Of a stretch of DNA of 64,000 nt, positions 1,055 to 62,764 are shown one piece after another; position 1 is the stretch's first letter; each line of letters opens with the position of its first letter. The stretch is from an uncultured Candidatus Rokubacteria bacterium. GTDB taxonomy: Bacteria > Methylomirabilota > Methylomirabilia > Rokubacteriales > DASRDR01. Below the pieces are notes generated by a model. That model made no database searches. It was not told the DNA's origin and saw nothing but the letters and a program-made list of their open reading frames with translations. The stretch covers positions 224,001 through 288,000 of the forward strand of contig CAWGVS010000010.1 of NCBI GenBank assembly GCA_963826115.1, given 5' to 3'. The position numbers were made by a program, and so were the translations under genes.

Positions 1055-2932
1055 ATGGCAGCGGTGACAGCGAAGATCCTCCACGTGGACCTCACCACCC
1101 GGACCACCCGCACCGAGGAGATACCCGAGCCGATCCTCAGGCGACACCTGGGCGGAGGTGGCCTCGCGGCGTACCTGCTCCTCCGCGACATGCCCGCCGG
1201 GGTCGACCCGCTCGGGCCCGACAACGTGCTGGTCTTCACGACCAGCATCATCAACGGGCTGTCGCTCTCGGGCACCAACCGCTACACCGCGGCGGCCAAG
1301 TCCCCGCTGACCGGCGGGTACGGCGAGTCGGAGGCGGGCGGCTGGTGGGCGCCGGAGCTGCGCGCGGCCGGCTACGACGGGATCGCGGTGCGGGGGCGCG
1401 CGGAGTCCCCGGTCTACCTCTGGATCAAGGACGGCCAGGTCGAGTTCCGCGACGCCTCGGCGTACTGGGGCAAGCTCTCCGGCGAGGTCCAGGAAGGGCT
1501 CGAGCAGGAGCTTGGCGACAAGCGGATCCGCGTGCTCCAGACCGGGATCTCCGGCGAGCGCGGCGTGCGCTACGCCGCCATCGTCAACCAGCTGAAGCAC
1601 TTCCACGGCCGGTGCGGGCTCGGCGCCGTCATGGGCGCGAAGAACCTGAAGGCCATCGCGGTCCGCGGCTCGAAGGTCAACGCGCCGGTGGACAAGGTCG
1701 GGGCCAAGTCCACGCTCACCTTCTTCAAGGACCACTACGACCGCGCCCGGGACCGGTTCCACCAGACGGGCACGGCCGGCGGCCTCCTGAACCTCGAGGC
1801 GAGCGGCATCCTGCCCACGCGGAACTTCCGCGACGGCTCCTTCGAGCACGCCAAGCAGATCAGCGGCCAGAAGATGGCGGAGACCATCCTCGTCAACCGC
1901 GGCACGTGCTACGCGTGCATGGTGGCCTGCAAGCGCGAGGTCGAGGTGAAGGAGCTCGGCGTGACGCCGCGGTTCGGCGGGCCCGAGTACGAGTCGCTGG
2001 CGGCCACGGGGTCGCTCTGCGGCGTGGGCGATCTCAACGCGCTCGCGAAGATCAACCAGCTGCTGGCGCAGTACGTGCTGGACTCGATCTCCACCGGCGT
2101 GGCCATCGCGTTCGCGATGGAGTGCTACGAGCACGGCATCATCACGAAGGCCGACACGGGCGGGGTCGAGCTCGTGTGGGGCAGCGCCGAGGCCGTCGAG
2201 CAGATGGTGCACCTGATCGGCCGGCGGGAAGGGATCGGCCGGCTTCTGGGCGAGGGCGTGAGGCGGGCGGCCGAGCACCTTGGCCGCGGCGCCGACCGAT
2301 TCGCCATGCACGTCAAGGGGCAGGAGCTCCCGATGCACGACCCGCGCGGGAAGAAGAGCCTGGCGCTCGCCTACGCGCTGTCGCCCACGGGGGCCGACCA
2401 CATGGAGGCCCCGCACGACCCGCTCTACGAGGGCTTCCACCCGGACGGCCCGCTCGGGGGGCTCGGTCTCATCGAGCCGGTGAAGATGCTCGACTTCGGA
2501 CCCCGCAAGGTGCGGGCGTACTACTACACGCAGCAGGTCTGGAGCTTCTACAACTCGGTGGGGATGTGCGACTTCGTCGCGACGCCGCTCAACGCGCTCG
2601 CCCTCGAGCGGTTCGTGGACTACATCAACGCGGTCACCGGCTGGAACATGAGCCTCTACGAGCTGATGAAGGTCGGCGAGCGGTCCAACACCCTCGCCCG
2701 CCTCTTCAACTGCCGCGAGGGCTTCACGCCGGCCGACGACGTTCTGCCGCAGCGGATGCACGAGGGGATCGGCAACGGGGCGCTGAAGGGCGAGCGGGTC
2801 GATCCCGAGCAGTTCCTGACGGCGCGCCGCCTCTACTACGAGATGGCGGGCTGGGACGGGGACACCGGCCGGCCGACGGCGGCGCGCCTCGCCGAGCTCG
2901 AGGTGGACACGTCGGTCTTCCAGACCGCCTGA
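1055..2932 (+). CDS. Aldehyde:ferredoxin oxidoreductase family (W/Mo-pterin)
   Basis: Motifs AKSPLTGGYGES, GRCGLGAVMGAKNLKAI, CYACMVAC, GPEYES and HVKGQELPMHDPRG. AGGAG RBS at 1041. Confidence 0.93.
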   Translation: MAAVTAKILHVDLTTRTTRTEEIPEPILRRHLGGGGLAAYLLLRDMPAGVDPLGPDNVLVFTTSIINGLSLSGTNRYTAAAKSPLTGGYGESEAGGWWAPELRAAGYDGIAVRGRAESPVYLWIKDGQVEFRDASAYWGKLSGEVQEGLEQELGDKRIRVLQTGISGERGVRYAAIVNQLKHFHGRCGLGAVMGAKNLKAIAVRGSKVNAPVDKVGAKSTLTFFKDHYDRARDRFHQTGTAGGLLNLEASGILPTRNFRDGSFEHAKQISGQKMAETILVNRGTCYACMVACKREVEVKELGVTPRFGGPEYESLAATGSLCGVGDLNALAKINQLLAQYVLDSISTGVAIAFAMECYEHGIITKADTGGVELVWGSAEAVEQMVHLIGRREGIGRLLGEGVRRAAEHLGRGADRFAMHVKGQELPMHDPRGKKSLALAYALSPTGADHMEAPHDPLYEGFHPDGPLGGLGLIEPVKMLDFGPRKVRAYYYTQQVWSFYNSVGMCDFVATPLNALALERFVDYINAVTGWNMSLYELMKVGERSNTLARLFNCREGFTPADDVLPQRMHEGIGNGALKGERVDPEQFLTARRLYYEMAGWDGDTGRPTAARLAELEVDTSVFQTA

Positions 2933-2952
2933 GTCGGGCCCGCGACAGGACG

Positions 2953-2985
2953 CGAGGGGCCGCGGCGTTCGCTGCGGCCCCTTCG
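2953..2985 (+). terminator. GC-rich hairpin after AOR, probable terminator
   Basis: Inverted repeat gaggggccgcggcg-ttcg-ctgcggcccctt with a weak U-tail. Confidence 0.5.
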
Positions 2986-3011
2986 TCGTCTCGGCGGAGG
3001 GAAGGATCGGG

Positions 3012-5705
3012 ATGACGCCGGGCTCCGGGAAGGGCCGCGCGCTCGCCGGGCTCGCGATCCTCCTGGGCGTCGGCGTGGCGATTCGCGCCGGCGCGGCCGC
3101 CACCGCCGCGCTCTGGTTCGACGAGGCGACCGCCGGCCTGATGGGCCGCCGCACGCTCCTCGGCGACTTCCTCCTGTACTTCCACGGGCAGGCCTACATG
3201 GGCGCCGTCGACGGCTACCTCCATGCCGTCCCGTTCGCGCTCCTCGGGTCGTCGCTCGACACCATCCGGCTCCTCCCGGTCCTGCTCTCGCTTCTTCACG
3301 TGGCCCTCGTCGCGCTCTTCGTCCGGCGCGTCACGGGCGACGGCCGGTGGGCCGCGGTGGTGGCGCTCGTTCCCACGCCGATGCTGCTCAAGTTCGCCCA
3401 CGACGGCCGGCTCTTCTACGACCTCGTCCCCGTCTGCACGCTCCTCCTCCTGCTCCTTGGGCTCCAGGCCGTCGAGGCTCCCACGGCCCCCGGACGCAGC
3501 CGCGCCCTCCTCGTCGCCGGGCTCCTGGCGGGGCTGGCCTGGTGGACGAACCTCATCCACACGGTCGCGATCGTGGCGGTCGCCGGCGTGGTCGTCCTCG
3601 GCCGCCCGCGCCTCCGCCTCGCCGCGCTCGCGGTGCCGGCGACGTTCCTGCTGGGCAGCGCCCCGTTCTGGGTCTTCGCCGCCACGCGCGGCCACCTCGC
3701 GGCGATCCGCACGCCGCTGGCCGCGACCGCGGCGCTGCCCGGTCAGGCGCATCTCCTCCTGACGCACGCGCTCCCGATCCTCCTCGGCCTGCCTCCCCGC
3801 GCGTTGGCGGGCGCGGCCGGACCGGGCCTCGTCGGGATGAGCCTGGTCGTGCTGGCGGCGGCCCTCGCCGTCTGCCTCGCGCGCGGCGGGACGGGCGGCT
3901 GGCTCGTCGCGGGCGTCGTGGCCGTCGGGTCGGCCGCGGTCGTGGTGGCGGAGCACGGGCGGCTGCTCCGAGGCGACGAGCCGCTCTATCTCCTGCCCGT
4001 GGCCGCCGTGCTGCCGGCCGTGCTCGGCATCCTGCTCGCGCAGATCGCCCGGCGCACCGTGGTCGGCGCGCTCGCCCTCACCCTCGTCCTCCTCGGCGGC
4101 CACGCGGCCGGGCTCCGGGCCGCGTACCCCCAGTTGTTCTCGTGGCGGGAGCTGGAAGCCCGGCGCCAGGAGACCCGATGGCCGGTCGCGATGGTCGAGC
4201 GCCTGGTCGCCGCGGGCGAGACCGCGGTCTACACCCACGACCCCGAGGTGCTGACGTTCGCCAGCGCCGAGCGAGTGACGGTCTCGCACTTCTACCAGGA
4301 GCGCTACCCGCCCCTCGCCGACCGCGTGGACGCGGCCCCGAAGGTCGCGTACTTCGCGCCGGAGCGGATCCCGGCGGGCCTGCTCGAGAGCCTGGCCGCC
4401 GCGGGGATCCGCTTCGACCGGGAGGAGACGCCGCGCGGGCCGCTCCTCAGCGGGTTCCGGCTGGAGCCGACCGAACTGCGCGAGATCCCGCCCACCGGGT
4501 GGAGCGCGACGGCGTCGATCCGTCCCGAGCTGGCGGGACACGCGATCGACCGGGACGCGGGCACGCGATGGCGCACCACCGGCCGTCCGGCGGACGCATG
4601 GCTCCAGGTGGACCTCGGTCGCGTGCGCCAGGTCGGCATGGTCGCGTGGCTGCCGGGGAGCTACCAGGAAGTGCCGCTCGGGTTTCGGCTCGAGACGTCC
4701 GTCGACGGCGGCCAGTTCACCGTCGCGCGGGAGGTGCCGGCCTACTACGGCCCGCTGTACTGGGCGGCGGGGCATCCGATGGGACGCGTGCGCTGGGGCC
4801 GCGTGGAGGTCCGCTTCCCGATCCGGCCCGCGCGCCACGTGCGGCTCACGCACCTCGGCCAGGACGACCGCTACCCGTGGACCGTGCGGGAGCTGTTCGC
4901 CTACGAGGCCGGCCAGCCGGACACCGGGTCGCCCGTCGATCCGCGCGAGGCCGCCAGCGCGCTCCTCGCGATGGGCGCCCGGCACGTCTACGCGGACCAC
5001 GGCGAGGGCCCGCGCCTCGTGGCGGCGTCGGGGGAGCGCCTCCTCGCGCCGCCGGACAACGTCGGCGTGGACCGGTACGGTCTCACGCCGCCGCTCGAGC
5101 GGCTCCCGTTCCTGTCGGTCGCGACGGACGCGGCCATCGCCTTCCCGCGCGGCGCGCCGTCGGGGCCGTCGATCGAGGCCGAGCTCCGGGCGGCCGGCGT
5201 CGGCTTCGTCACGCGGGACGCGGGGGGCTACCGGCTCCTCGGCCGGCTGGACGCGGCGGCCCCGCCGGCCCACGCCGCGAGCGCCGTCCCGGTCCGTGTG
5301 TCGGCGGAGCCCGCCGGCGATGACCCGCGCGCCGCGGTGGATGGCCGCGTCTCGACGCGATGGTCGACGCGGGCCCCGCAGGCGCCGGGTCAGTGGCTCG
5401 AGGTCGAGCTGGACGAGCCGGCCGAGCTCGGCGGGCTCGAGCTGGACCTGGGCGGCGCGACGCTCGAGTACCCGCGCGACCTCGCGGTCCGCGTTCCGCG
5501 CGCCGGGGGCTGGGAGGACCTCCGGATCACCGTCCGCTGGGTGGGACCGCTCGTGTGGACCGGCACCCACGTCCTCCGGGCCGGCGTCGAGCGGATCCTC
5601 GTGACGTTCCCGCCCGCGCGGGTCCGCGCCCTCCGCGTGGTCCAGACCGGACGGGAGGCGTTCCATCCGTGGTCGGTGGCGGAGCTCCGGCTGCTCGCGC
5701 CGTGA
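3012..5705 (+). CDS. Membrane protein: GT-C/ArnT-like multi-TM N-terminus plus two discoidin (F5/8 type C) domains
   Basis: WFDEA..GLMG after TM1 and about 10 hydrophobic segments. Two discoidin-like repeats: AIDRDAGTRW..WLQVDLG and AVDGRVSTRWST..QWLEVELD..WSVAEL. Confidence 0.75.
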   Translation: MTPGSGKGRALAGLAILLGVGVAIRAGAAATAALWFDEATAGLMGRRTLLGDFLLYFHGQAYMGAVDGYLHAVPFALLGSSLDTIRLLPVLLSLLHVALVALFVRRVTGDGRWAAVVALVPTPMLLKFAHDGRLFYDLVPVCTLLLLLLGLQAVEAPTAPGRSRALLVAGLLAGLAWWTNLIHTVAIVAVAGVVVLGRPRLRLAALAVPATFLLGSAPFWVFAATRGHLAAIRTPLAATAALPGQAHLLLTHALPILLGLPPRALAGAAGPGLVGMSLVVLAAALAVCLARGGTGGWLVAGVVAVGSAAVVVAEHGRLLRGDEPLYLLPVAAVLPAVLGILLAQIARRTVVGALALTLVLLGGHAAGLRAAYPQLFSWRELEARRQETRWPVAMVERLVAAGETAVYTHDPEVLTFASAERVTVSHFYQERYPPLADRVDAAPKVAYFAPERIPAGLLESLAAAGIRFDREETPRGPLLSGFRLEPTELREIPPTGWSATASIRPELAGHAIDRDAGTRWRTTGRPADAWLQVDLGRVRQVGMVAWLPGSYQEVPLGFRLETSVDGGQFTVAREVPAYYGPLYWAAGHPMGRVRWGRVEVRFPIRPARHVRLTHLGQDDRYPWTVRELFAYEAGQPDTGSPVDPREAASALLAMGARHVYADHGEGPRLVAASGERLLAPPDNVGVDRYGLTPPLERLPFLSVATDAAIAFPRGAPSGPSIEAELRAAGVGFVTRDAGGYRLLGRLDAAAPPAHAASAVPVRVSAEPAGDDPRAAVDGRVSTRWSTRAPQAPGQWLEVELDEPAELGGLELDLGGATLEYPRDLAVRVPRAGGWEDLRITVRWVGPLVWTGTHVLRAGVERILVTFPPARVRALRVVQTGREAFHPWSVAELRLLAP

Positions 5706-54984: not shown

Positions 54985-55827
54985 TCAGTGCATGACGGTG
55001 CCCCCGGCGAGGTTGATGGCCTGGCCGGTGACGTAGGCGGACGCGTCCGATCCGAGGAAGGCGGCCAGCTCCGCGACGTCCTCGGCGCTCGCGACGCGCC
55101 CGAGGGGGATCTGGGCGGCCCGGTCGGCGAGCGCGCGCGCGTGGAGCGCGGGGTCGTAGCTCCCGTCCGCGCGCCGTCCGAGAAAGTCGAGCCGGTCGGT
55201 GTCCGCCGAGCCGGGGCAGATCGCGTTCACCGTGATGCGATGGGGTGCGAGCTCCATCGCGAGCGCCTGCGTGAGCCCGATCACGCCGAACTTCGAGGCG
55301 CAGTACGCGGCGAGCCGCGCGTAACCCACCTTCCCGCAGTTCGAGGACATGTTGACGATCCGGCCCGGCGTCCCGCGCGCCACCATGAGCCCGGCGACGG
55401 CCTTGCTGCAGAGGTACGTCCCCGTCAGGTTGGTCTCGAGCACCACGTGCCACGCCTCCTCCGGCAGCTCGACCACCGGGACGCGGTCGGCGCCGGGCGG
55501 GGCGGCGGCGTTGTTGACGAGGATGTCGATCCGGCCGAACGTCCGGTCGGCCAGGTCGACGGCGCGCTGGATCTGGTCGGCGGCCCGCACGTCGACCAGG
55601 GCCGTCACGGCCCGGCGGCCGGCCTGGCGGACCTCGTCGGCCACGGCGTCGAGCCCGCGCCACCCGCCGGCGGGCTTCGTGGCCACGACGCGAGTGCCGG
55701 CCGGCGCGACGTCCGTGAGGACGAGGTCCGCGCCCTCGGCCGCCAGCCGCCGGGCGATCGCCCGGCCGAACCCGCGCTCGCCTCCGCTTCCCGTCACCAT
55801 CGCCACCTTGCCCTCGAGACGGCCCAT
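54985..55827 (-). CDS. Short-chain dehydrogenase/reductase
   Basis: VTGSG...GFG, ILVNNA, YCASK and VNAICPG. Confidence 0.92.
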   Translation of the reverse strand: MGRLEGKVAMVTGSGGERGFGRAIARRLAAEGADLVLTDVAPAGTRVVATKPAGGWRGLDAVADEVRQAGRRAVTALVDVRAADQIQRAVDLADRTFGRIDILVNNAAAPPGADRVPVVELPEEAWHVVLETNLTGTYLCSKAVAGLMVARGTPGRIVNMSSNCGKVGYARLAAYCASKFGVIGLTQALAMELAPHRITVNAICPGSADTDRLDFLGRRADGSYDPALHARALADRAAQIPLGRVASAEDVAELAAFLGSDASAYVTGQAINLAGGTVMH

Positions 55828-55950
55828 CCGGAGACCCCCTGTGCTCGGCGCTGGTCGAATTTTCGGCGGCCATCATACCGTGCGTTGGCTGTGGTACGCT
55901 CGCCCCGCACGCCGGGCGGGCCCGAGGACGCTGGGTGCGGAGGTCCTCGC

Positions 55951-56616
55951 GTGAGCGTGACGCCTCTCGGTCAGGAGTCGGTGCCGGGCCGCGTGGTCCG
56001 GGTGATGGAGATTCCCGCGCGCCACGGCGCCGCGGTCGAGGTCGCCCGCGGGCTCGTGCTGCGCGTGATCGACGTCGAGGGCCAGCAGGTCGGCGACTTC
56101 GTCTGCTTCAACCGGGACGACCTCGACGAGCGGTACTCGCCTCAGAACACCGTGCTCTTCAACCGCACGATCTACCCGAAGGCGGGCGCCGCGCTCGTCT
56201 CCGACCGCGGACGGCCCATGATGCGCCTCGTCGCCGACACCGTGGGCATCCACGACCTCATCTGCGGGTCGTGCAGCGAGGAGTACTACCGGAACCGCCT
56301 CGACTACACGGGCCCGCACCGGAGCTGCCGCTCGAACCTGGCCGAGGCGTTGGCGCCCTGGGGCATCGAGCTCCAGGATGTGCCGTTCTCGTTCAACTTC
56401 TTCATGCAGTGGCCGGTGCAGCCCGACGGGGCGGTGCGGCCCATGGCGGCGCCCTCGCGGGCGGGCGACTACGTCGACCTCCTCGCCGAGATGGACGTGC
56501 TCGCGGCGAACTCCGCGTGCCCCTCGGACATCACGCCCACCAACGCCCACCGCCCGACGTCCATGCGGTTCGTGCTCTACGAGCCGGATCCCGGAGCCGC
56601 CGGGGCCGCCCGCTGA
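55951..56616 (+). CDS. Urea carboxylase-associated family protein (DUF1989)
   Basis: DVEGQQVGDF, HDLICGSC, SCRSNL, FNFFM, GDYVDLLAEMD and SACP. Confidence 0.87.
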   Translation: MSVTPLGQESVPGRVVRVMEIPARHGAAVEVARGLVLRVIDVEGQQVGDFVCFNRDDLDERYSPQNTVLFNRTIYPKAGAALVSDRGRPMMRLVADTVGIHDLICGSCSEEYYRNRLDYTGPHRSCRSNLAEALAPWGIELQDVPFSFNFFMQWPVQPDGAVRPMAAPSRAGDYVDLLAEMDVLAANSACPSDITPTNAHRPTSMRFVLYEPDPGAAGAAR

Positions 56617-56621
56617 CGCGC

Positions 56622-58051
<1,430 letters not shown>

Positions 58052-58061
<10 letters not shown>

Positions 58062-58206
58062 ACTGTGCACCCTGCACTGTCTAGTGTGCAGCGTGGCATA
58101 ACATATTGATTCTGAACGAGTAATCACGCCGGAGGTCCCGTCGGGGCGCTCACTCCCGTGTAGGAAGTGCACAAGAAACAGTGCACCGTGAACTAGTGAC
58201 GATACA
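58052..58206. promoter_or_regulatory. Enhancer-like palindromes TGCAC-N8-GTGCA (candidate bEBP binding sites)
   Basis: Perfect sites at 58052-58069, 58073-58090 and 58168-58185. Degenerate TGAAC-N8-ATACA at 58189-58206. They form two pairs, each 21 bp apart. Confidence 0.75.
58099..58111 (-). promoter_or_regulatory. IHF consensus site
   Basis: The minus strand reads AATCAATATGTTA, an exact match to WATCAANNNNTTR. Confidence 0.6.
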
Positions 58207-58285: not shown

Positions 58286-58301
58286 TGGCCCCGCCATTGC
58301 T
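58286..58301 (+). promoter_or_regulatory. Sigma-54 -24/-12 promoter for the peptide array
   Basis: TGGCCCCGCCATTGCT has GG and GC at the canonical spacing (TGGCNC-N5-TTGCW), about 60 bp before the first peptide ATG. Confidence 0.75.
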
Positions 58302-58363
58302 CTCCGAGCCTGCGACACCCACACAAGGCGTCCCGTCTCGGGACGCATGGAGGAGGCCTGCCC

Positions 58364-58510
58364 ATGACCAAGAAGCTCACCGCAATCCTGGCGCTCATCG
58401 CGTCGTTCCTGCTGGTCGCGCCCGTGCTCGAGTCCGGGACGCCGAACCAGGTCCACGTCTTCCAAGCGGTCGGCGACGCGTGCGACAGCGGCGGTGGCGG
58501 CGGCTGGTAA
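58364..58510 (+). CDS. Small secreted peptide precursor 1 (48 aa; missing from the ORF track)
   Basis: GGAGGAGG RBS. MTKKLTAILALIASFLLVAPVLESGTPNQVHVFQAVGDACDSGGGGGW-TAA. Confidence 0.88.
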   Translation: MTKKLTAILALIASFLLVAPVLESGTPNQVHVFQAVGDACDSGGGGGW

Positions 58511-58580
58511 GCCCGGGTCCGATGCGGCGATTCCGAACCCAGTCCGAACCTGGTGGCGCGCTGCGGCGCGCCGGGAGGCC

Positions 58581-58727
58581 ATGATGGCAAGACTATTGGC
58601 GGCGCTGGTGGTGGTGGTGTCCTTCCTGCTCGTGGCGCCCGTGATCGAGTCCGGGACCCCGAGCCACGTGCACGTCTTCCAGGCGGTCGGCGACGCGTGC
58701 GACAGCGGCGGTGGCGGCGGCTGGTAG
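58581..58727 (+). CDS. Small secreted peptide precursor 2 (48 aa)
   Basis: GGAGG RBS. MMARLLAALVVVVSFLLVAPVIESGTPSHVHVFQAVGDACDSGGGGGW-TAG. Confidence 0.88.
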   Translation: MMARLLAALVVVVSFLLVAPVIESGTPSHVHVFQAVGDACDSGGGGGW

Positions 58728-58798
58728 GCCCGGGCCCGGTGCGACGACTCTCAACCCCTTTCCGAACCCAGAGGCGCGCGACGGCGCGCATGGAGGCC

Positions 58799-58945
58799 AT
58801 GATGGCGAGACTATTGGCGGTGCTGACGGTGGTGGTGTCCTTCCTGCTCGTGGCGCCGGTGATCGAGTCCGGGACGCCGAACCAGGTCCACGTGTTCCAG
58901 GCGATCGGCAACGCCTCCGACAGCGGTGGTGGCGGCGGCTGGTAG
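58799..58945 (+). CDS. Small secreted peptide precursor 3 (48 aa)
   Basis: GGAGG RBS. MMARLLAVLTVVVSFLLVAPVIESGTPNQVHVFQAIGNASDSGGGGGW-TAG. Confidence 0.88.
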   Translation: MMARLLAVLTVVVSFLLVAPVIESGTPNQVHVFQAIGNASDSGGGGGW

Positions 58946-59016
58946 GCCCGGGCCCGATGCGGCGACTCTCAACCCCTTTCCGAACCCAGAGGCGCGCGGC
59001 GGTGCGCTTGGAGGCT

Positions 59017-59163
59017 ATGATGGCGAAGTTATGGGTCGTGCTCGCGGTAATGGTGTCCTTCCTGCTCGTGGCGCCGGTGATCGAGTCCGGGACCCCGAGT
59101 CACGCGCGTGTGTTCCAGGCCGTGGGCGACGCCTGCGACAGCGGCGGCGGCGGCGGCTGGTAA
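59017..59163 (+). CDS. Small secreted peptide precursor 4 (48 aa)
   Basis: GGAGG RBS. MMAKLWVVLAVMVSFLLVAPVIESGTPSHARVFQAVGDACDSGGGGGW-TAA. Confidence 0.88.
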   Translation: MMAKLWVVLAVMVSFLLVAPVIESGTPSHARVFQAVGDACDSGGGGGW

Positions 59164-59180: not shown

Positions 59181-60833
59181 ATGCGTCTCGCCGGGGCGGG
59201 ACCCCGCCCGCGACGCGGGCGGCAGGCCGCGGGTCTCCTCCTCGGGGCGATCGCGGGGGCGCTCTGGCTCTCGCTGGGCCTCTGGCCGTCGATGGCCGAG
59301 GCCCAGGAGCGCCCGCCGGCCCAGGCGGGCGGAGTGTACCGTCGCCCGCTCGGCAACGACCCGGCGACCCTCGACCCCGCTCGTCTGCGGGACATCTACA
59401 GTCTCGCGGTCGGGCAGCAGCTCTTCGACGGGCTGGTCCAGTTCGACCAGACGCTGAACATCACCCCGGCGCTGGCGCAGTTCTGGGTCGCCTCGCGTGA
59501 CTGGCTGACCTGGACCTTCACGCTGCGGAAGGGGGTCAAGTTCCACCACGGACGCGAGGTCACCTCGGACGACGTCGTGTACTCGTTCACGCGCCTCCTG
59601 GATCCCCGCCTGCGCTCGGGCGGGGCGGACCACTTCATGACGATCCAGGGGGCGCCGGAGTTCCGGGAAGGGAAGGCCAAGCAGGTCGCCGGCCTGGCGG
59701 CTCTCGATCGCTACACGGTGCGCGTCACCCTCACCGAGGCGTCGGTGCCGTTCGTCTCCATCCTCGCGGTCGGCCAGGCGAAGATCGTGCCGCGGGAGCT
59801 GGTCGAAGAGCAGGGGGAGGCGTTTGGGCTCCAGCCGGTGGGAACCGGCCCCTTCAAGTTCGTCCGCTGGGAGCGCGGGAAGGAGATCGTTCTCGCGGCC
59901 AATCCCGACTACTTCGACGGGCCGCCGAAGCTCGCGCGGCTCGTGTTTCGCATCTTTCCGGGCGAGCGCCTCGACAGCGTGTTCGCGGACTTCCAGGCCG
60001 GGAACCTCGAGGACAGCCCGATCCCGTCCAAGGACTACCGCCAGATCATTGCGAGCCAGGCCTACCAGTACTTCCGCCGGCCGATCTTCAGCCTGCGGCA
60101 CTACGGGCTCAACACCCGGATGAAGCCGCTGGACGACCGGCGGGTGCGCCAGGCGCTCGTCTACGCCATCGACCGCGAGGCCATCGTCGCGGATCCGTGG
60201 CTCGGCCGCTACGCGCTCGCGCGCGGCATCCTGCCGCCCGGGACGCTCGGGTTCAATCCGAAGCTTCGGGGCTATCCGTACGATCCCCCGCGCGCCCGGG
60301 AGCTCCTGGTCCAGGCGGGCTACCCCGGCGGGAAGGGCCTGCCCCCGATCGCGATCTGGTCCAGCGTACGCTCCGAGGAGATGCTGCGCGAGCACGAGCG
60401 CATCCGGAAGGACCTCGAGGCCGTCGGGGTGACCGCGGAGTTCCAGTACAGCCCGGACTGGCCGACGTACTCCAAGGCCATGTCCGAGCGGAAGCTGCCG
60501 GTCTTCCTCCGGGGCTGGCTCGCCGACGTGCCGGACCCCGAGAACTTCCTGGCCAAGCTCTTCCACTCCGCCAGCCCGTGGAACTACATGGGCTACGCGA
60601 ACGCGACCGTGGACGGCCTCCTCGAGAAGGCCCGGGCCGAGCCGGACGTGCCGCGCCGGGTCGAGGTTTACCGCCGGGCCGAGGAGCTCGTCATGGATGA
60701 CGCGCCCGTGATCCCGGTCTGGCACCAGACCTACGAGCGCCTCTTCCAGCCGTACGTCAAGGGTGTCGAGGTGAGCGGCCTCGGCGACGCGTACATCCCC
60801 TTCCGAAAGGTGTGGCTCGAGCGACCGCGCTGA
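59181..60833 (+). CDS. Orphan peptide-binding protein (ABC family 5 SBP, DppA/OppA-like)
   Basis: Signal peptide ending AEA, DPATLDPA, TWTFTLRKGVKFHHG, PVGTGPFKF and GWLADVPDPENFL. No adjacent permease or ATPase. Confidence 0.92.
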   Translation: MRLAGAGPRPRRGRQAAGLLLGAIAGALWLSLGLWPSMAEAQERPPAQAGGVYRRPLGNDPATLDPARLRDIYSLAVGQQLFDGLVQFDQTLNITPALAQFWVASRDWLTWTFTLRKGVKFHHGREVTSDDVVYSFTRLLDPRLRSGGADHFMTIQGAPEFREGKAKQVAGLAALDRYTVRVTLTEASVPFVSILAVGQAKIVPRELVEEQGEAFGLQPVGTGPFKFVRWERGKEIVLAANPDYFDGPPKLARLVFRIFPGERLDSVFADFQAGNLEDSPIPSKDYRQIIASQAYQYFRRPIFSLRHYGLNTRMKPLDDRRVRQALVYAIDREAIVADPWLGRYALARGILPPGTLGFNPKLRGYPYDPPRARELLVQAGYPGGKGLPPIAIWSSVRSEEMLREHERIRKDLEAVGVTAEFQYSPDWPTYSKAMSERKLPVFLRGWLADVPDPENFLAKLFHSASPWNYMGYANATVDGLLEKARAEPDVPRRVEVYRRAEELVMDDAPVIPVWHQTYERLFQPYVKGVEVSGLGDAYIPFRKVWLERPR

Positions 60834-60844
60834 TCGGGGCTGGG

Positions 60845-62764
60845 ATGAGGCGCCCGGTGTTCGTCTCGCTCCGCACGAAGCTCCTCACCGGCACGCTGCT
60901 CATCGTCGCCGTCCTCATGGCCGCCGTGACCGCGGTCGTCGAGCACCGGCAGCGGACGACCATCATCGAGGAGGTTCACCGGCGCGGGACGGCGATGGCG
61001 GAGGGCCTGGCCGGGGTCTCGGCGGGCGCGCTCCTCCTGTACAACTTCACCGCGCTCGAGCAGAACGTCGTCCGCTTCGACCGCGAGACCGACGTCGTCT
61101 CCGCGATGATCCTCGACCGTTTCGGCCAGGTGGTGGCGCACAGCCGGACGCCCGCCGCGGTGGGGTCGACGCTGTCGGACCCGGTGTCGCTCCGCGCCCT
61201 CTCGGCCGCGCCCGTGCTCCAGGAGACGGCCGGGCCGGACGGCGAGGCTCTCTACGACGTCGCCGTGCCCATCCTCGTCGAGGGAGTCCGGTGGGGCACG
61301 GTGCGGATCGCGCTGTCGCGCCAGCGCATGGACGCGGAGATCTCGGGCACGCGGCGCGAGCTGGCCATGGTCGCGGTGGTCGCCCTCGTGCTGGGCGGGC
61401 TGGCGACGGTGATCGTCGGCCGCCGGATGACCCGGCCGGTCCGCCAGCTCGCCGACGGCGTCGCCGCGATCGCGCGCGGCGAGCTGGACCAGCGCATCGA
61501 ACCCGGCCGGTCCGACGAGCTGGGTCGCCTGGCGCTCGCCTTCAACGAGATGGCGGCCCAGCTCCGGCAGCAGCGGACGGACCTCGAGGTTGCCGACGCC
61601 GCGCTCCGCCAGCGGTTCGCGGAGCTCTCCGACCTCAAGAGCTACACCGACCACATCCTCCGGTCGTTCGTGAACGGCCTGGTGACGCTCGACCTGGACG
61701 GCCGGGTGGTCACCGTGAACCCCGCGGCGGAGGCCCTCACGGGCCGCGCGGCGGCCGAGCTCACCGGGCGCCCGACGACGGAGACGTTCCAGAACGCGCC
61801 GGAGCTCCGGGACCTGCTCCTCGAGACGCTGCGAACCCGGGTCGGCGTGCCCCACGTGTCGCTGATGCTGCCCCGGGGCGACGGCCCGCCGGTCCCGGTG
61901 GAGGTCACCACGACGCCCCTCCGCGGGGCCGAGGGGCAGGCGCTCGGCGTGGTGGCGATCCTCCGCGACCTCACCCCCGTTCGCCAGCTGGAGGAGCAGC
62001 TGCGGCGCTCCGACCGCCTCGCGGCGCTCGGCACCCTGGCCGCCGGCCTGGCCCACGAGATCAAGAACCCGCTCACCTCCATCATGACGTTCAGCCGCCA
62101 CATCGCCCGGCGATTCGACGACGAGCGGTTTCGGCAGCGGTTCCAGAGCGTCGTCCCGCGGGAGCTCGAGCGCATCAACGCGATCGTCGACGGGCTCCTC
62201 CGGCTCGCCCGGCCCGCGCGCCTGGTCCTGGCGCCGGTGCACGTGCCGCCCCTCATCGAGCAGGCCCTCGAGCTCTACGCTCCGCAGATCGAGGCCCGCC
62301 GCATCCGCGTGCGGCGCGAGTGGCCGATCGGCATGCCGCCCATCCCGGGGGACACGGAGCACCTCTACCAGGCCTTCCTGAATCTCGTCGCGAACGCGAT
62401 CGACGCGATGGAAGAGGAAGGGGGGACGCTCACCCTGCGCCTCGGCTGGCCCCGGGACGCCGACGGGCTCGGCCACGCCGTGCGCGACCGGGTGGTGCTG
62501 GAGGTGATCGACACGGGGAGCGGCATCAAGCCCGAGGAGACGCCCGAAGTCTTCAACCCGTTCTTCACCACGAAGTCGGGGGGCACCGGGCTCGGTCTCG
62601 CCATCGCCCACAAGATCATCGAGGATCACGGAGGCACGGTGACGTTCCGGAGCAGCCCCGGCCAGGGGACGGTGTTCACCGTGGTGCTCCCGGTCCGCGC
62701 CGGCCGGCACGCCGAGCCCCTGGTCCGCGGGGAGTGGCGAGTCGGGGGTCAGGCTCCCCCGTGA
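60845..62764 (+). CDS. Membrane sensor histidine kinase (TM-periplasmic Cache-like-TM-HAMP-PAS-HisKA-HATPase; NtrB/AtoS-like)
   Basis: HAMP motif DELGRLALAFNEM, PAS segment, H-box AHEIKNPL, N-box NLVANAIDAM, DTGSGI and FFTTK.GGTGLGL. Confidence 0.94.
   Translation: MRRPVFVSLRTKLLTGTLLIVAVLMAAVTAVVEHRQRTTIIEEVHRRGTAMAEGLAGVSAGALLLYNFTALEQNVVRFDRETDVVSAMILDRFGQVVAHSRTPAAVGSTLSDPVSLRALSAAPVLQETAGPDGEALYDVAVPILVEGVRWGTVRIALSRQRMDAEISGTRRELAMVAVVALVLGGLATVIVGRRMTRPVRQLADGVAAIARGELDQRIEPGRSDELGRLALAFNEMAAQLRQQRTDLEVADAALRQRFAELSDLKSYTDHILRSFVNGLVTLDLDGRVVTVNPAAEALTGRAAAELTGRPTTETFQNAPELRDLLLETLRTRVGVPHVSLMLPRGDGPPVPVEVTTTPLRGAEGQALGVVAILRDLTPVRQLEEQLRRSDRLAALGTLAAGLAHEIKNPLTSIMTFSRHIARRFDDERFRQRFQSVVPRELERINAIVDGLLRLARPARLVLAPVHVPPLIEQALELYAPQIEARRIRVRREWPIGMPPIPGDTEHLYQAFLNLVANAIDAMEEEGGTLTLRLGWPRDADGLGHAVRDRVVLEVIDTGSGIKPEETPEVFNPFFTTKSGGTGLGLAIAHKIIEDHGGTVTFRSSPGQGTVFTVVLPVRAGRHAEPLVRGEWRVGGQAPP

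Follow-up and report, generated by a model that had tools for sequence, protein, structure and literature searches.

A small-peptide gene family of uncultured Rokubacteria linked to a sigma-54-dependent regulator, an orphan SBP and a sensor kinase: candidate self-encoded ligands of a two-component system

The genome of an uncultured soil Rokubacteria bacterium carries four tandem open reading frames (ORFs) of 48 codons each on the plus strand, at 58364–59163 of the 64,000-nucleotide stretch analysed here (the window). Judged from sequence comparison, these ORFs are real protein-coding genes under purifying selection. They lie between the gene of a response regulator and the genes of a solute-binding protein (SBP) and a sensor kinase (Table 1), and because of this position their products most likely serve as the cell's own ligand of this sensor. 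We propose, with a probability of roughly one half, that the peptide is the exported, self-encoded ligand of an SBP-dependent two-component system and that both together form an autoregulatory loop. Comparison of genomes showed that gene order, promoter motif and protein-level selection are conserved throughout a class of uncultured Methylomirabilota/Rokubacteria.

Table 1. Predicted features of the peptide locus (positions within the window; peptide genes including the stop codon).
Feature	Position	Strand	Remarks
Sigma-54-dependent response regulator	56622–58061	+	REC, AAA+ Sigma54_activat with GAFTGA, HTH_8
Upstream activator-type palindrome 1	58052–58069		TGCAC-N8-GTGCA; overlaps regulator gene end
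Upstream activator-type palindrome 2	58073–58090		21 bp after palindrome 1
Upstream activator-type palindrome 3	58168–58185		
Sigma-54 promoter	58286–58301	+	-24 TGGC / -12 TTGCT (TGGCCCCGCCATTGCT)
Peptide copy 1	58364–58510	+	48 aa, leader type MTKK..., profile E 9.6e-34
Peptide copy 2	58581–58727	+	48 aa from first ATG, 47 aa from ATG 58584
Peptide copy 3	58799–58945	+	Ser instead of Cys40, Asn for Asp38
Peptide copy 4	59017–59163	+	
Orphan periplasmic SBP, family 5 (DppA/OppA-like)	59181–60833	+	Pfam SBP_bac_5 8.3e-87
Sensor histidine kinase	60812–62764	+	Pfam sCache_3_2, HAMP, PAS, HisKA, HATPase_c

Results

Four tandem peptide genes

The sequence-only reading of the window had described four exact 48-codon ORFs in tandem, each behind a GGAGG site and each encoding a basic and then hydrophobic N-terminus. 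This description was borne out. All four ORFs comprise 48 codons when counted from the first ATG, a GGAGG-type site was seen ahead of every start, and the blocks named as fixed, SFLLVAPV(L/I)ESGTP, VFQA and DSGGGGGW, are present in all four copies. The length has to be qualified for copies 2–4, which possess two adjacent ATGs; since a mere 2 nt separate the GGAGG from the first of them, the second one, giving a peptide of 47 aa, is the likelier start. The repeat unit of the peptide genes measures 217–218 bp, and copies 1–4 terminate with TAA, TAG, TAG and TAA, respectively. The N-terminal part consists of Lys3/Lys4, an uncharged stretch of 18 residues, which would suffice in length for a membrane anchor, and I/L-E-S before Gly25, so that the stretch is bordered by Lys and an invariant Glu. 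A profile search for further copies elsewhere in the genome (6.24 Mb, E≤10) returned only these four frames. A profile match of 439 aa (P0055) was set aside, as it looks like a chimeric ORF call.

The source genome has a G+C content of 72%, and many overlapping ORFs are found in the window; long spurious ORFs are common under such conditions. The four frames might therefore represent tandemly repeated DNA or repeated elements of a regulatory RNA rather than genes, and the GC-rich hairpins preceding each ribosome-binding site and start would suit this explanation. However, Nei-Gojobori dN/dS values between the copies were 0.15–0.38 overall and 0.07–0.30 over residues 14–48 at dS values of 0.26–0.86. 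These ratios well below 1, together with many synonymous differences, corroborate the protein-level selection that had been read from synonymous codon changes. The reading frame is kept in 49 distinct homologues, and across the class frame, length and motif persist while intergenic DNA diverges; moreover, 31 of 41 genomes contain just a single peptide gene. The folding energies of the hairpins were no better than those of shuffled sequences (z -0.94 to +1.41) and an Rfam search gave only a chance match (E 0.38), for which reasons the interpretation as an RNA element was dropped. Taken from these comparisons, the notion that the ORFs are not genes is close to refuted. Part of the stretch is contained in 20 sequencing runs, two of which are RNA libraries and probably represent one data set filed twice. 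The RNA contigs, derived from a ~93% relative, cover only parts of the SBP gene and the 3′ end of the regulator gene and are uninformative on peptide expression.

An unnamed peptide family

Homologous ORFs with preserved frame were found at E≤0.001 in 112 of the 251 genomes of the phylum, a tally which takes in two flagged unpublished genomes (G244 and G113). The family, with members of 39–48 aa, is confined to one class of Methylomirabilota/Rokubacteria and is widespread, with 1860 sequence clusters in public metagenomes. No match to a known protein family was obtained: Pfam gave no family for copies 1 and 2, and NCBIfam gave none for copies 1–3 and a chance-level match only (E 0.2) for copy 4. 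Likewise, Pfam domains were absent from the 120 listed homologues, and the neighbours of the peptides in the protein atlas are unnamed clusters. The expectation that annotation would miss the family proved partly right, but public records do call homologues, with 'hypothetical protein' as the sole name given. A literature search, conducted mostly at abstract level, found no paper on this peptide family.

Residues P20, E23, F33, G37 and A39 are invariant in the 49 distinct homologues, and P20, E23, G37 and A39 stay so when other orders are added. The conserved C-terminal block has the form V-F-x-x-x-G-x-A-acidic-Gly run. DSGGGGGW had been regarded as an invariant C-terminus, which holds inside this genome only. 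The last residue across 41 genomes is W (14), D (14), G (5), Y (3), F (2), E (2) or M (1), and A, S, D or E take the position of Cys40 across the family. As neither Trp nor Cys is conserved family-wide, DSGGGGGW is a genome-specific sequence. The proposed division into a variable leader and a conserved core was confirmed with respect to the C-terminal block, but within the order the peptide is best conserved in the 12 residues with which its hydrophobic segment ends (SFLLVAPVIESG). In all lineages, the small residues Ser or Gly follow the invariant Glu. Tandem copies number four here, two to five in kin, and two and three in another family, where they presumably arose independently.

The end of the hydrophobic segment is conserved beyond the level usual for a cleaved Sec signal, which fits a retained anchor or special processing. 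The sequence A-P-V-I-E-S/Y-G found there resembles the Flp processing motif; an assignment to Flp or type IV pilins was set aside because this sequence stands behind the hydrophobic segment, whereas the Flp motif stands ahead of it.

Regulator, promoter and upstream sites

The regulator gene likely starts with GTG at 56622, matching orthologues of 479 aa. Its product showed Pfam similarity to Sigma54_activat (2.6e-71), Response_reg (1.6e-30) and HTH_8 (1.3e-11), and GAFTGA is visible in the translation. The putative sigma-54 promoter is located 78 nt before the first peptide ATG. Within the 200 nt ahead of the first peptide gene, a TGGC-N7-TTGC motif was identified in 38 of 40 genomes, against a background of at most 0.032 hits per 200 nt; in G239 it is present with a relaxed last base. 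All 10 loci from other orders have the motif upstream of the peptide gene as well. Among genomes, the -24 and -12 elements of the promoter stay the same and its spacer varies. The genome also encodes rpoN, as indicated by a Sigma54_DBD hit of 203 bits (C5:818494-818967). With a conserved promoter, rpoN and a GAFTGA activator, the peptide, SBP and kinase genes thus have the predicted make-up of a sigma-54 operon.

Palindrome 1 is a conserved feature of the window's family, in which it lies at about -310 relative to the peptide ATG. TGCAC-N8-GTGCA occurs 24 times in the genome compared to 1.6 expected copies, including about ten other sites or clusters, of which three show a sigma-54-like motif and unrelated genes downstream. 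Examples of the genes beside the other palindromes are those of a ferredoxin with a GAF-kinase and a regulator, that of a patatin-like protein and an ORF of 138 aa with unknown product. As the motif is generic in this genome and occurs beside unrelated genes, the palindromes cannot define the regulon of this regulator and were ruled out as its marker. That the adjacent regulator drives the peptide promoter we infer from adjacency and co-conservation, and from these only.

SBP and sensor kinase

The SBP gene starts 17 nt after the stop codon of copy 4, and the SBP has a signal-like N-terminus. Its best NCBIfam hits were DppA and Opp4A, all far below the cut-offs. Among solved structures it is closest to the chains 8upi, HbpA and DppA, and PrgZ also belongs to the solved relatives (E 3.8e-33). 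The kinase gene overlaps the end of the SBP gene; sCache_3_2 spans residues 49–180 of the kinase and is followed by HAMP at residues 202–253. The best named relatives of the kinase are AtoS and ZraS, both below cut-offs. In the loci examined, the SBP gene is always followed by the kinase gene and never by permease genes, and the neighbouring ABC protein of the window, encoded on the other strand, is of the ABC-F type (ABC_tran_Xtn). By the linkage of SBP and kinase genes without permease or ATPase and by the predicted extracytoplasmic sensor domain, the pair can be classified as a putative SBP-dependent two-component sensor. Genes of SBPs which stimulate sensor kinases are described as lying among signalling genes (review PMC8050422).

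Conservation of the four-part module

Regulator, peptide, SBP and kinase genes form a complete module in 18 of 20 loci of 16 kb taken from 20 other genomes. Of the two incomplete loci, one breaks off at a contig end within the SBP gene, and the other, in G004, is without regulator and kinase genes. The peptide genes are preceded by an orthologue of the regulator gene in 19 of these loci, and the SBP gene is followed by an orthologue of the kinase gene in 18; of the remaining two kinase genes, one is lost to a contig end and one deleted. In G004, deletion of the regulator and kinase genes goes along with a -12 element reading ATGC and with frameshifts in three of the five peptide copies; the best kinase match elsewhere in this genome is only 49% identical. 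The same module was found in all 10 loci from two other families with divergent peptides and with SBPs only 48–56% identical. Here, the regulator is upstream in eight loci, the other two being cut by contig ends, and the kinase is present in all 10. In all long loci examined but a decayed one, the peptide gene or genes come first behind the sigma-54 promoter. Flanking genes beyond the module differ between families, and the only genes common to all 30 loci are those of regulator, SBP and kinase, with an extra hybrid kinase in one family. Neither a peptide nor an SBP orthologue was found in six genera (40 genomes), and most genera with one of them have both.

These loci also bear on the suggestion that the peptides are precursors of RiPPs, whose modifying enzymes would then have to be encoded at another place of the genome. 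The presence of short precursor-like genes in several copies, whose products share a C-terminal core, would agree with it, as would the Cys and Trp residues in this genus. Yet these two residues are not conserved, and no modifying enzyme, protease or exporter was detected beside the module by Pfam searches of the window and three other loci, in agreement with the initial statement that the window contains no modifying enzyme; tblastn searches with the conserved genes of all 30 loci revealed no modifying enzyme or dedicated exporter conserved beside the peptides. Furthermore, the N-terminus is Sec-like and differs from a RiPP leader. Bufferin-type exceptions with a Sec-like N-terminus have MNIO enzymes adjacent; no such enzyme is adjacent here. 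A RiPP precursor is thus very improbable.

Model of the SBP-peptide complex

A structural model of the SBP with the peptide reached a score of 0.71 (runs 0.77, 0.71 and 0.58), which is the model's own confidence obtained with shallow alignments, while the best of three controls with unrelated 35-residue partners scored 0.00. Among 80 solved complexes, 58 attained the mark of 0.71, compared with 2 of 110 mismatched pairs. The runs agree in at least 72% of their contacts, with a partner pLDDT of at least 46; the fold of the partner itself is uncertain (pLDDT 47–55). The interface comprises peptide residues 32–48, with residues 39–44 packed tightest against SBP residues 443–448. The model supports a location of the conserved C-terminal block in the SBP cleft, although the complex may pass through its likeness to solved OppA/DppA-peptide structures.

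Discussion

A proposed autoregulatory circuit

In the circuit that we favour, the pre-peptide would be inserted or exported by means of its N-terminal Lys residues and the 18-residue hydrophobic segment. Cleavage, probably shortly after the invariant P-x-x-E, e.g. after VIES, would release a peptide of ~24 aa, or of ~14–15 aa in other orders, whose C-terminal block would occupy the ligand cleft of the orphan SBP of DppA/OppA type encoded in the same operon. Depending on whether it is loaded or not, the SBP would set the activity of the sCache kinase, as LuxP, TorT, AioX and CBP do for theirs, and the kinase would phosphorylate the adjacent regulator. This regulator, presumably bound at the TGCAC-N8-GTGCA sites, would act on the sigma-54 promoter ahead of the peptide genes. 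The loop could be either auto-inducing or a negative feedback of the CpxP/ZraP kind, and it could operate either within the periplasm of one cell or between cells. A peptide gene amplified in tandem would raise the peptide dose relative to the sensor.

Two other functions of the peptide deserve consideration. The main rival, which we judge somewhat doubtful, is an uncleaved single-pass inner-membrane protein (N-in, periplasmic tail) which modulates the kinase within the membrane and might tether the SBP. MgrB, acting on PhoQ, and the pre-pilin PilA, acting on PilS, are feedback accessories of kinases, and the peptide gene would resemble those of known small-protein feedback regulators in being predicted to stand under control of the same two-component system. 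The uncharged stretch framed by Lys and Glu also suits such an anchor, and strongest conservation in the C-terminal half of the segment and in P-x-x-E is unusual for a disposable signal peptide. Two to five tandem copies in several lineages, however, fit a consumable better than a stoichiometric kinase partner, the Ser or Gly after the invariant Glu is compatible with signal-peptidase cleavage, and an anchored modulator would need the modelled placement of the C-terminal block in the SBP cleft only as an add-on.

Alternatively, the peptide could be the output of the system, a sigma-54-induced effector in the periplasm or outside the cell such as an envelope-stress protectant, a metal-binding peptide or a glycine-rich antimicrobial of the microcin kind, with SBP and kinase sensing an external peptide or nutrient. 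We consider this unlikely. As the first gene behind a regulated promoter, amplified in copy number and encoding a glycine-rich C-terminus with His and Cys in this genome's copies, the peptide gene has traits of an effector gene, and AtoS and ZraS as nearest named relatives of the kinase (below cut-offs) point in the same direction. Metal binding through H-x-H and Cys was nevertheless dropped as a family trait, since these residues are not conserved. In addition, no immunity or export genes lie beside the module in the flanks examined, and the model fits the conserved block specifically to the SBP, as judged by the controls. Since the four-part module is kept at class-level distances without any other conserved gene, the peptide is the only conserved non-sensor product, an argument which both the ligand and the effector interpretation can claim.

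Returning to the self-encoded ligand, the sequence-only reading had noted a resemblance to signalling pre-peptides or RiPP precursors. The signalling pre-peptide is partly supported, by the context of regulator, promoter, SBP and kinase and by the modelled position of the block in the SBP cleft, but not in the Phr and ComX forms named at the time. No RRNPP receptor was found among the conserved genes of the 30 loci or in the Pfam-checked flanks, and a ComX-like Trp at the terminus is restricted to the minority of genomes counted above, with no ComQ-like gene adjacent here. With regard to range, Rokubacteria are predicted to be diderm (PMC5712423) and no outer-membrane exporter is linked to the module; for both reasons, cell-to-cell signalling by a peptide of 14–24 residues is unsupported. 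One can speculate, tentatively and with the odds against it, that an SBP-gated Cache kinase and a sigma-54 regulator with a Sec-exported ribosomal peptide as ligand represent the first SBP-mediated, gene-encoded auto-induction (quorum-type) circuit in a diderm bacterium, in which the lineages would differ in pherotype through their C-terminal residue (W, D, Y, E, G, M) and amplification would tune the dose.

Relation to known systems

The Gram-positive pheromone systems Phr/Rap, PapR/PlcR and cCF10/PrgZ use Sec-exported precursors sensed through OppA-type proteins. They share with the present peptides a small basic-hydrophobic precursor, a C-terminal candidate active region and a binder of the OppA family, here a predicted one, and the extreme C-terminus, which varies by lineage, is reminiscent of pherotypes. 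In those systems, however, the SBP serves a permease and the peptide meets its RRNPP receptor in the cytoplasm. In the present case, a predicted diderm, the partners of the SBP are a membrane kinase and a sigma-54 regulator, and no permease or RRNPP gene is linked. ComX and RiPP-type peptides likewise originate from short precursors, and Trp near the C-terminus is shared in this genus; the differences are the absence of an adjacent ComQ-like or other modifying enzyme and the lack of Trp conservation.

Small-protein feedback partners are known from CpxP/CpxA, ZraP/ZraSR (sigma-54 dependent), MgrB/PhoQ and PilA/PilS-PilR, and the promoters of ZraP and PilA are sigma-54 dependent. As proposed here, a small exported or membrane protein is in these cases the most direct target of the two-component system on which it acts, but they show no sequence similarity to the peptides by Pfam or NCBIfam, have no SBP intermediary and differ in gene order and size. 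AioR, the regulator of the AioX-AioS-AioR system, is a sigma-54 activator.

The closest counterparts of the sensor part are AioX-AioS-AioR, LuxP-LuxQ, TorT-TorS and CBP-ChiS, in which, like here, the SBP gene lies beside the kinase gene without transporter genes (PMC8050422). AioS is described as sCache-like, and the present kinase is likewise of the periplasmic Cache type; CBP-ChiS, DppA-Tap and AibA-TlpB involve a family-5 SBP, as here (PMC8050422). The ligands of the SBP-dependent systems listed in this review are small molecules or sugars of external or metabolic origin, and none of the listed systems has a ribosomal ligand encoded in the same operon, as is proposed here (PMC8050422). The literature search, again mostly at the level of abstracts, found no paper on a gene-encoded ligand for an SBP-dependent kinase.

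Even if the peptide turned out to be a kinase modulator or an effector, the family of small proteins to which it belongs would be unnamed, widespread and clearly placed in its regulatory setting. To our knowledge, gene-encoded peptide signalling is textbook matter for Gram-positive bacteria and nearly unknown in diderm bacteria, and we know of SBP-dependent kinases only with small-molecule or sugar ligands. If the proposed circuit is true, the module would unite both principles in four self-contained parts conserved across a class of abundant uncultured soil bacteria. Consisting of peptide, SBP, kinase, regulator and one promoter, it would be of a size that allows its reconstruction in a laboratory host, and it would offer a defined peptide-SBP pair for structures and possibly a new orthogonal sensor part. 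Cell signalling in Rokubacteria would thereby become accessible to experiment for the first time.

Tandem peptide genes in the window

The four tandem 48-codon ORFs of the sequence-only reading were recovered with translations that agree with its description, in a repeat unit of 217–218 bp (see table). Their products are, from copy 1 to copy 4, MTKKLTAILALIASFLLVAPVLESGTPNQVHVFQAVGDACDSGGGGGW, MMARLLAALVVVVSFLLVAPVIESGTPSHVHVFQAVGDACDSGGGGGW, MMARLLAVLTVVVSFLLVAPVIESGTPNQVHVFQAIGNASDSGGGGGW and MMAKLWVVLAVMVSFLLVAPVIESGTPSHARVFQAVGDACDSGGGGGW. A six-frame profile search (E ≤ 10) of the source genome (6.24 Mb, 72% G+C; window on contig C10) matched these four peptide frames only and thus yielded no further copies. 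Copies 2–4 contain two ATGs each, and because GGAGG ends just 2 nt before the first, the second (47 aa) is the likelier start. Selection at the protein level had been proposed for these repeats. The dN/dS values among the copies (Nei-Gojobori), 0.15–0.38 over the whole length and 0.07–0.30 over residues 14–48 (dS 0.26–0.86), bear this out and indicate that the copies diverged at synonymous sites under constraint at the protein level. The probability that the ORFs are not genes at all is considered negligible.

GC-rich hairpins precede copies 1–3, and a weaker counterpart precedes copy 4. Their folding energies are no better than those of shuffled sequences; the hairpins between the tandem genes might play a role in mRNA processing or stability.

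Features of the peptide locus, in window coordinates
Feature	Position	Strand	Description	Basis
SDR gene	54985–55872	-	beside DUF1989 gene, divergently oriented	
DUF1989 gene	55873–56616		ends 5 nt before regulator start	
Sigma-54-dependent response regulator	start GTG 56622		REC, AAA+ with GAFTGA, HTH_8; upstream of peptides	Pfam
Three TGCAC-N8-GTGCA palindromes	58052, 58073, 58168		conserved in the window's family	
Sigma-54 promoter TGGCCCCGCCATTGCT	58286–58301		78 nt before first peptide ATG	
GC-rich hairpin	58326–58348		7–8 bp stem, just 5' of copy 1 ribosome-binding site	
Peptide copy 1	58364–58510	+	48 codons from first ATG	ORF
GC-rich hairpin	58555–58575		7–8 bp stem, just 5' of copy 2 ribosome-binding site	
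Peptide copy 2	58581–58727	+	48 codons from first ATG	ORF
GC-rich hairpin	58773–58790		7–8 bp stem, just 5' of copy 3 ribosome-binding site	
Peptide copy 3	58799–58945	+	48 codons from first ATG	ORF
Peptide copy 4	59017–59163	+	48 codons from first ATG	ORF
Family-5 solute-binding protein (SBP)			starts 17 nt after copy 4	Pfam
Histidine kinase			sCache_3_2, HAMP, PAS, HisKA, HATPase_c; overlaps end of SBP gene	Pfam
Window flanks			one side SDR, DUF1989, RecQ; other side ABC-F protein, methyltransferase, Fpg	

Distribution and conservation of the peptide family

No Pfam or NCBIfam model matched the peptide. A single-copy query gave matches at E ≤ 0.001 in 112 of the 251 genomes searched from the phylum. 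These belong without exception to four families within a single order (f1, 18/20; f2, 91/159; f3, 1/1; f5, 1/1); none of 69 genomes from the other nine families matched. The phylum tallies of the peptide and of SBP orthologues take in two genomes flagged as unpublished (G244 and G113), on which no other claim rests. The relatives found are MAGs labelled Candidatus Rokubacteria, Rokuibacteriota or Methylomirabilota. A profile built from 49 distinct sequences found 65 matches (E ≤ 0.001) among 1.84 billion cluster representatives, all short or ORF-calling run-ons, and 1860 clusters in a 5.8-billion collection. Among the matches listed (120 of the 1860 clusters) no Pfam domain occurred and the sole name was ‘hypothetical protein’, which implies that annotation pipelines do call many members; the expectation that standard annotation would miss the family thus holds only in part. 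The family itself is still nameless. A literature search found nothing on these peptides, which does not prove them unpublished.

Over 41 genomes, copy number was 1 (31 genomes), 2 (7), 4 (1) or 5 (2). P20, E23, F33, G37 and A39 are invariant within the order (49 distinct sequences), where the S14–G25 block (SFLLVAPVIESG) is almost fixed. The DSGGGGGW terminus, described as invariant, is so within this genome but is specific to it: Cys40 is replaced elsewhere by A, S, D or E, and the final residue is W in 14 genomes, D in 14, G in 5, Y in 3, F in 2, E in 2 and M in 1. Such variation of the last residue does not support the ComX-type chemistry suggested earlier.

A conserved regulator–peptide–SBP–kinase module

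The main finding is the genomic context of the peptides. The closest relatives of the SBP are DppA, Opp4A, HbpA and PDB 8upi. Comparison with 20 loci of about 16 kb, one from each of 20 other genomes, revealed the peptide in all of them and the complete order regulator, peptide, SBP and kinase in 18; one of the remaining two ends with its contig inside the SBP, and the other, from genome G004, lacks regulator and kinase. Genes beyond the module differ from family to family, and synteny of the DUF1989 and SDR genes is limited to the window's genus. The only RNA-library contigs found map, in a relative, to genes beside those of the peptides.

Many loci of family f2 (e.g. L035:11642–12913 and L041:11605–12987) have a second kinase after the main one, a hybrid HisKA-HATPase-REC protein without a sensor. 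In L040 and L045 the two apparently form a single protein (993 and 1029 aa); the window's genus is without the hybrid kinase.

Pfam searches of the flanks in the window and three other loci revealed no permease, RiPP-type enzyme, peptidase or exporter beside the module. This argues against the earlier RiPP reading, and a RiPP precursor served by enzymes encoded at a distance is very improbable.

At the G004 locus (L050, G004:C18, 7650–9300) the regulator and kinase genes are deleted, the SBP is intact and the –12 element is mutated to ATGC. Three of its five near-identical peptide units carry a frameshift (+1/–1) immediately 3' of the codons for ESGT. Outside this locus, no kinase of G004 matches at more than 49% identity, compared with 81–89% for orthologues in the genus. 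Loss of regulator and kinase together with decay of promoter and peptides supports a functional link between the module parts.

Sigma-54 promoter and palindromes

Of 40 genomes with sufficient upstream sequence, 38 carry the motif TGG[CT]-N7-[TC]TGC within 200 nt 5' of the first peptide gene (background at most 0.032 per 200 nt); in genome G239 the motif is present but its last base differs. The –24 and –12 elements are fixed and are separated by a variable spacer. The source genome encodes rpoN.

The genome contains 24 copies of TGCAC-N8-GTGCA, where about 1.6 would be expected. Besides that of the window there are some 10 sites or clusters, three of them with a sigma-54-like motif 166–182 bp downstream and unrelated genes. 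The palindromes were therefore rejected as a sign of this particular regulator; the type marks NtrC-type regulation generally. Palindromes are mostly paired at a spacing of exactly 21–22 bp (e.g. C6:39022/39043, C6:778055/778076, C6:805717/805738, C6:1035917–1036020, C10:55132/55153, C12:568900–569004; window 58052–58185), and four loci carry a sigma-54-like motif 166–186 bp downstream. Pairs and motif together look like an enhancer grammar common to several NtrC-type regulators. Elsewhere in the genome lies a paralogous sigma-54 module (L067, G000:C6:565000–571000, at 1655–5200). Its palindromes and sigma-54-like motif are followed by genes for a small ferredoxin (2x[4Fe-4S]), a histidine kinase with a GAF domain and, last, a sigma-54 regulator with 48% identity to that of the window.

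The module beyond the order

Families f7 (13/21) and f10 (3/6), which belong to the same class, also have SBP orthologues, of 50–57% identity; there the single-copy query gave no peptide match. By profile search, a divergent peptide ORF was found directly 5' of the SBP in all ten loci fetched from these families (e.g. MKKIMLLVLVVLGLLAIMPAMEIDSSTQVFSRSGFAEGGM in L075). The kinase follows the SBP and the promoter motif is present in 10/10; the regulator precedes the peptide in 8/10, the other two being cut by contig ends. No peptide ORF of this kind accompanies the SBP at two paralogous loci (42% and 50% identity). P20, E23, G37 and A39 remain invariant with the divergent peptides added, and the tail is still an acidic residue plus Gly-Gly. 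At genus level, peptide and SBP orthologue mostly occur together, and six genera (40 genomes) have neither. Three identical tandem copies occur in G061 (L072, G061:C2, 6394–6999) and two in G059 (L074, G059:C43, 6234–6609); amplification in this different family presumably arose independently.

Predicted SBP–peptide complex

A complex of SBP residues 42–550 (alignment of 30 rows) and peptide residues 14–48 (family alignment) was predicted with a score of 0.71 (runs 0.77, 0.71 and 0.58), the best of three controls reaching 0.00; 58 of 80 solved complexes attain this mark, as do 2 of 110 mismatched pairs. At least 72% of contacts are common to the runs. Partner pLDDT is at least 46, which leaves the fold of the peptide itself uncertain. 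The interface predicted with confidence comprises peptide residues 32–48, i.e. the conserved C-terminal block, and excludes the variable residues 26–31 and the conserved hydrophobic block. It is tightest between peptide 39–44 and SBP 443–448, part of a strand that includes W446 and D449 (among SBP relatives, W446 is invariant and D449 near-invariant); in DppA/OppA structures this strand lines the ligand cleft. A peptide in an SBP is a textbook pair and a passing score can stem from likeness to solved complexes; the model is therefore taken as support, not proof, that the SBP binds the conserved block.

A putative peptide feedback loop

Comparison of sequences establishes coding constraint, class-wide conservation of the four-part module and of the promoter motif, and co-loss in G004. 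The sequence-only reading is partly supported: its signalling pre-peptide is plausible, its RiPP and ComX-type chemistry is not. The pre-peptide would be exported via its N-terminal Lys and 18-residue hydrophobic segment and probably cleaved a few residues past the invariant P-x-x-E, which Ser and Gly follow in all lineages. The hydrophobic block is unusually conserved, as might befit an uncleaved, membrane-anchored peptide that modulates the kinase, an alternative we regard as somewhat unlikely. If the peptide is instead released, the orphan SBP would bind its C-terminal block and control the sCache kinase in the manner of SBP-stimulated kinases such as LuxQ/LuxP, TorS/TorT, AioS/AioX and ChiS/CBP (described in passages of PMC8050422). 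The kinase may pass phosphate to the adjacent regulator, which would activate the peptide promoter. Induction of this promoter would also suit a peptide that is the effector output of the system, which we consider distinctly unlikely. The signalling chain would constitute a feedback loop, of either sign, with a self-encoded ligand. The signal may act within one cell's periplasm or between cells; as Rokubacteria are predicted to be diderm (PMC5712423), a peptide of 14–24 residues would have to cross an outer membrane for the latter. No gene-encoded ligand of an SBP-dependent kinase was found in the literature, which is no proof of its being unpublished. In this uncultured lineage, the system would join SBP-dependent two-component sensing to a peptide signal that is itself gene-encoded.
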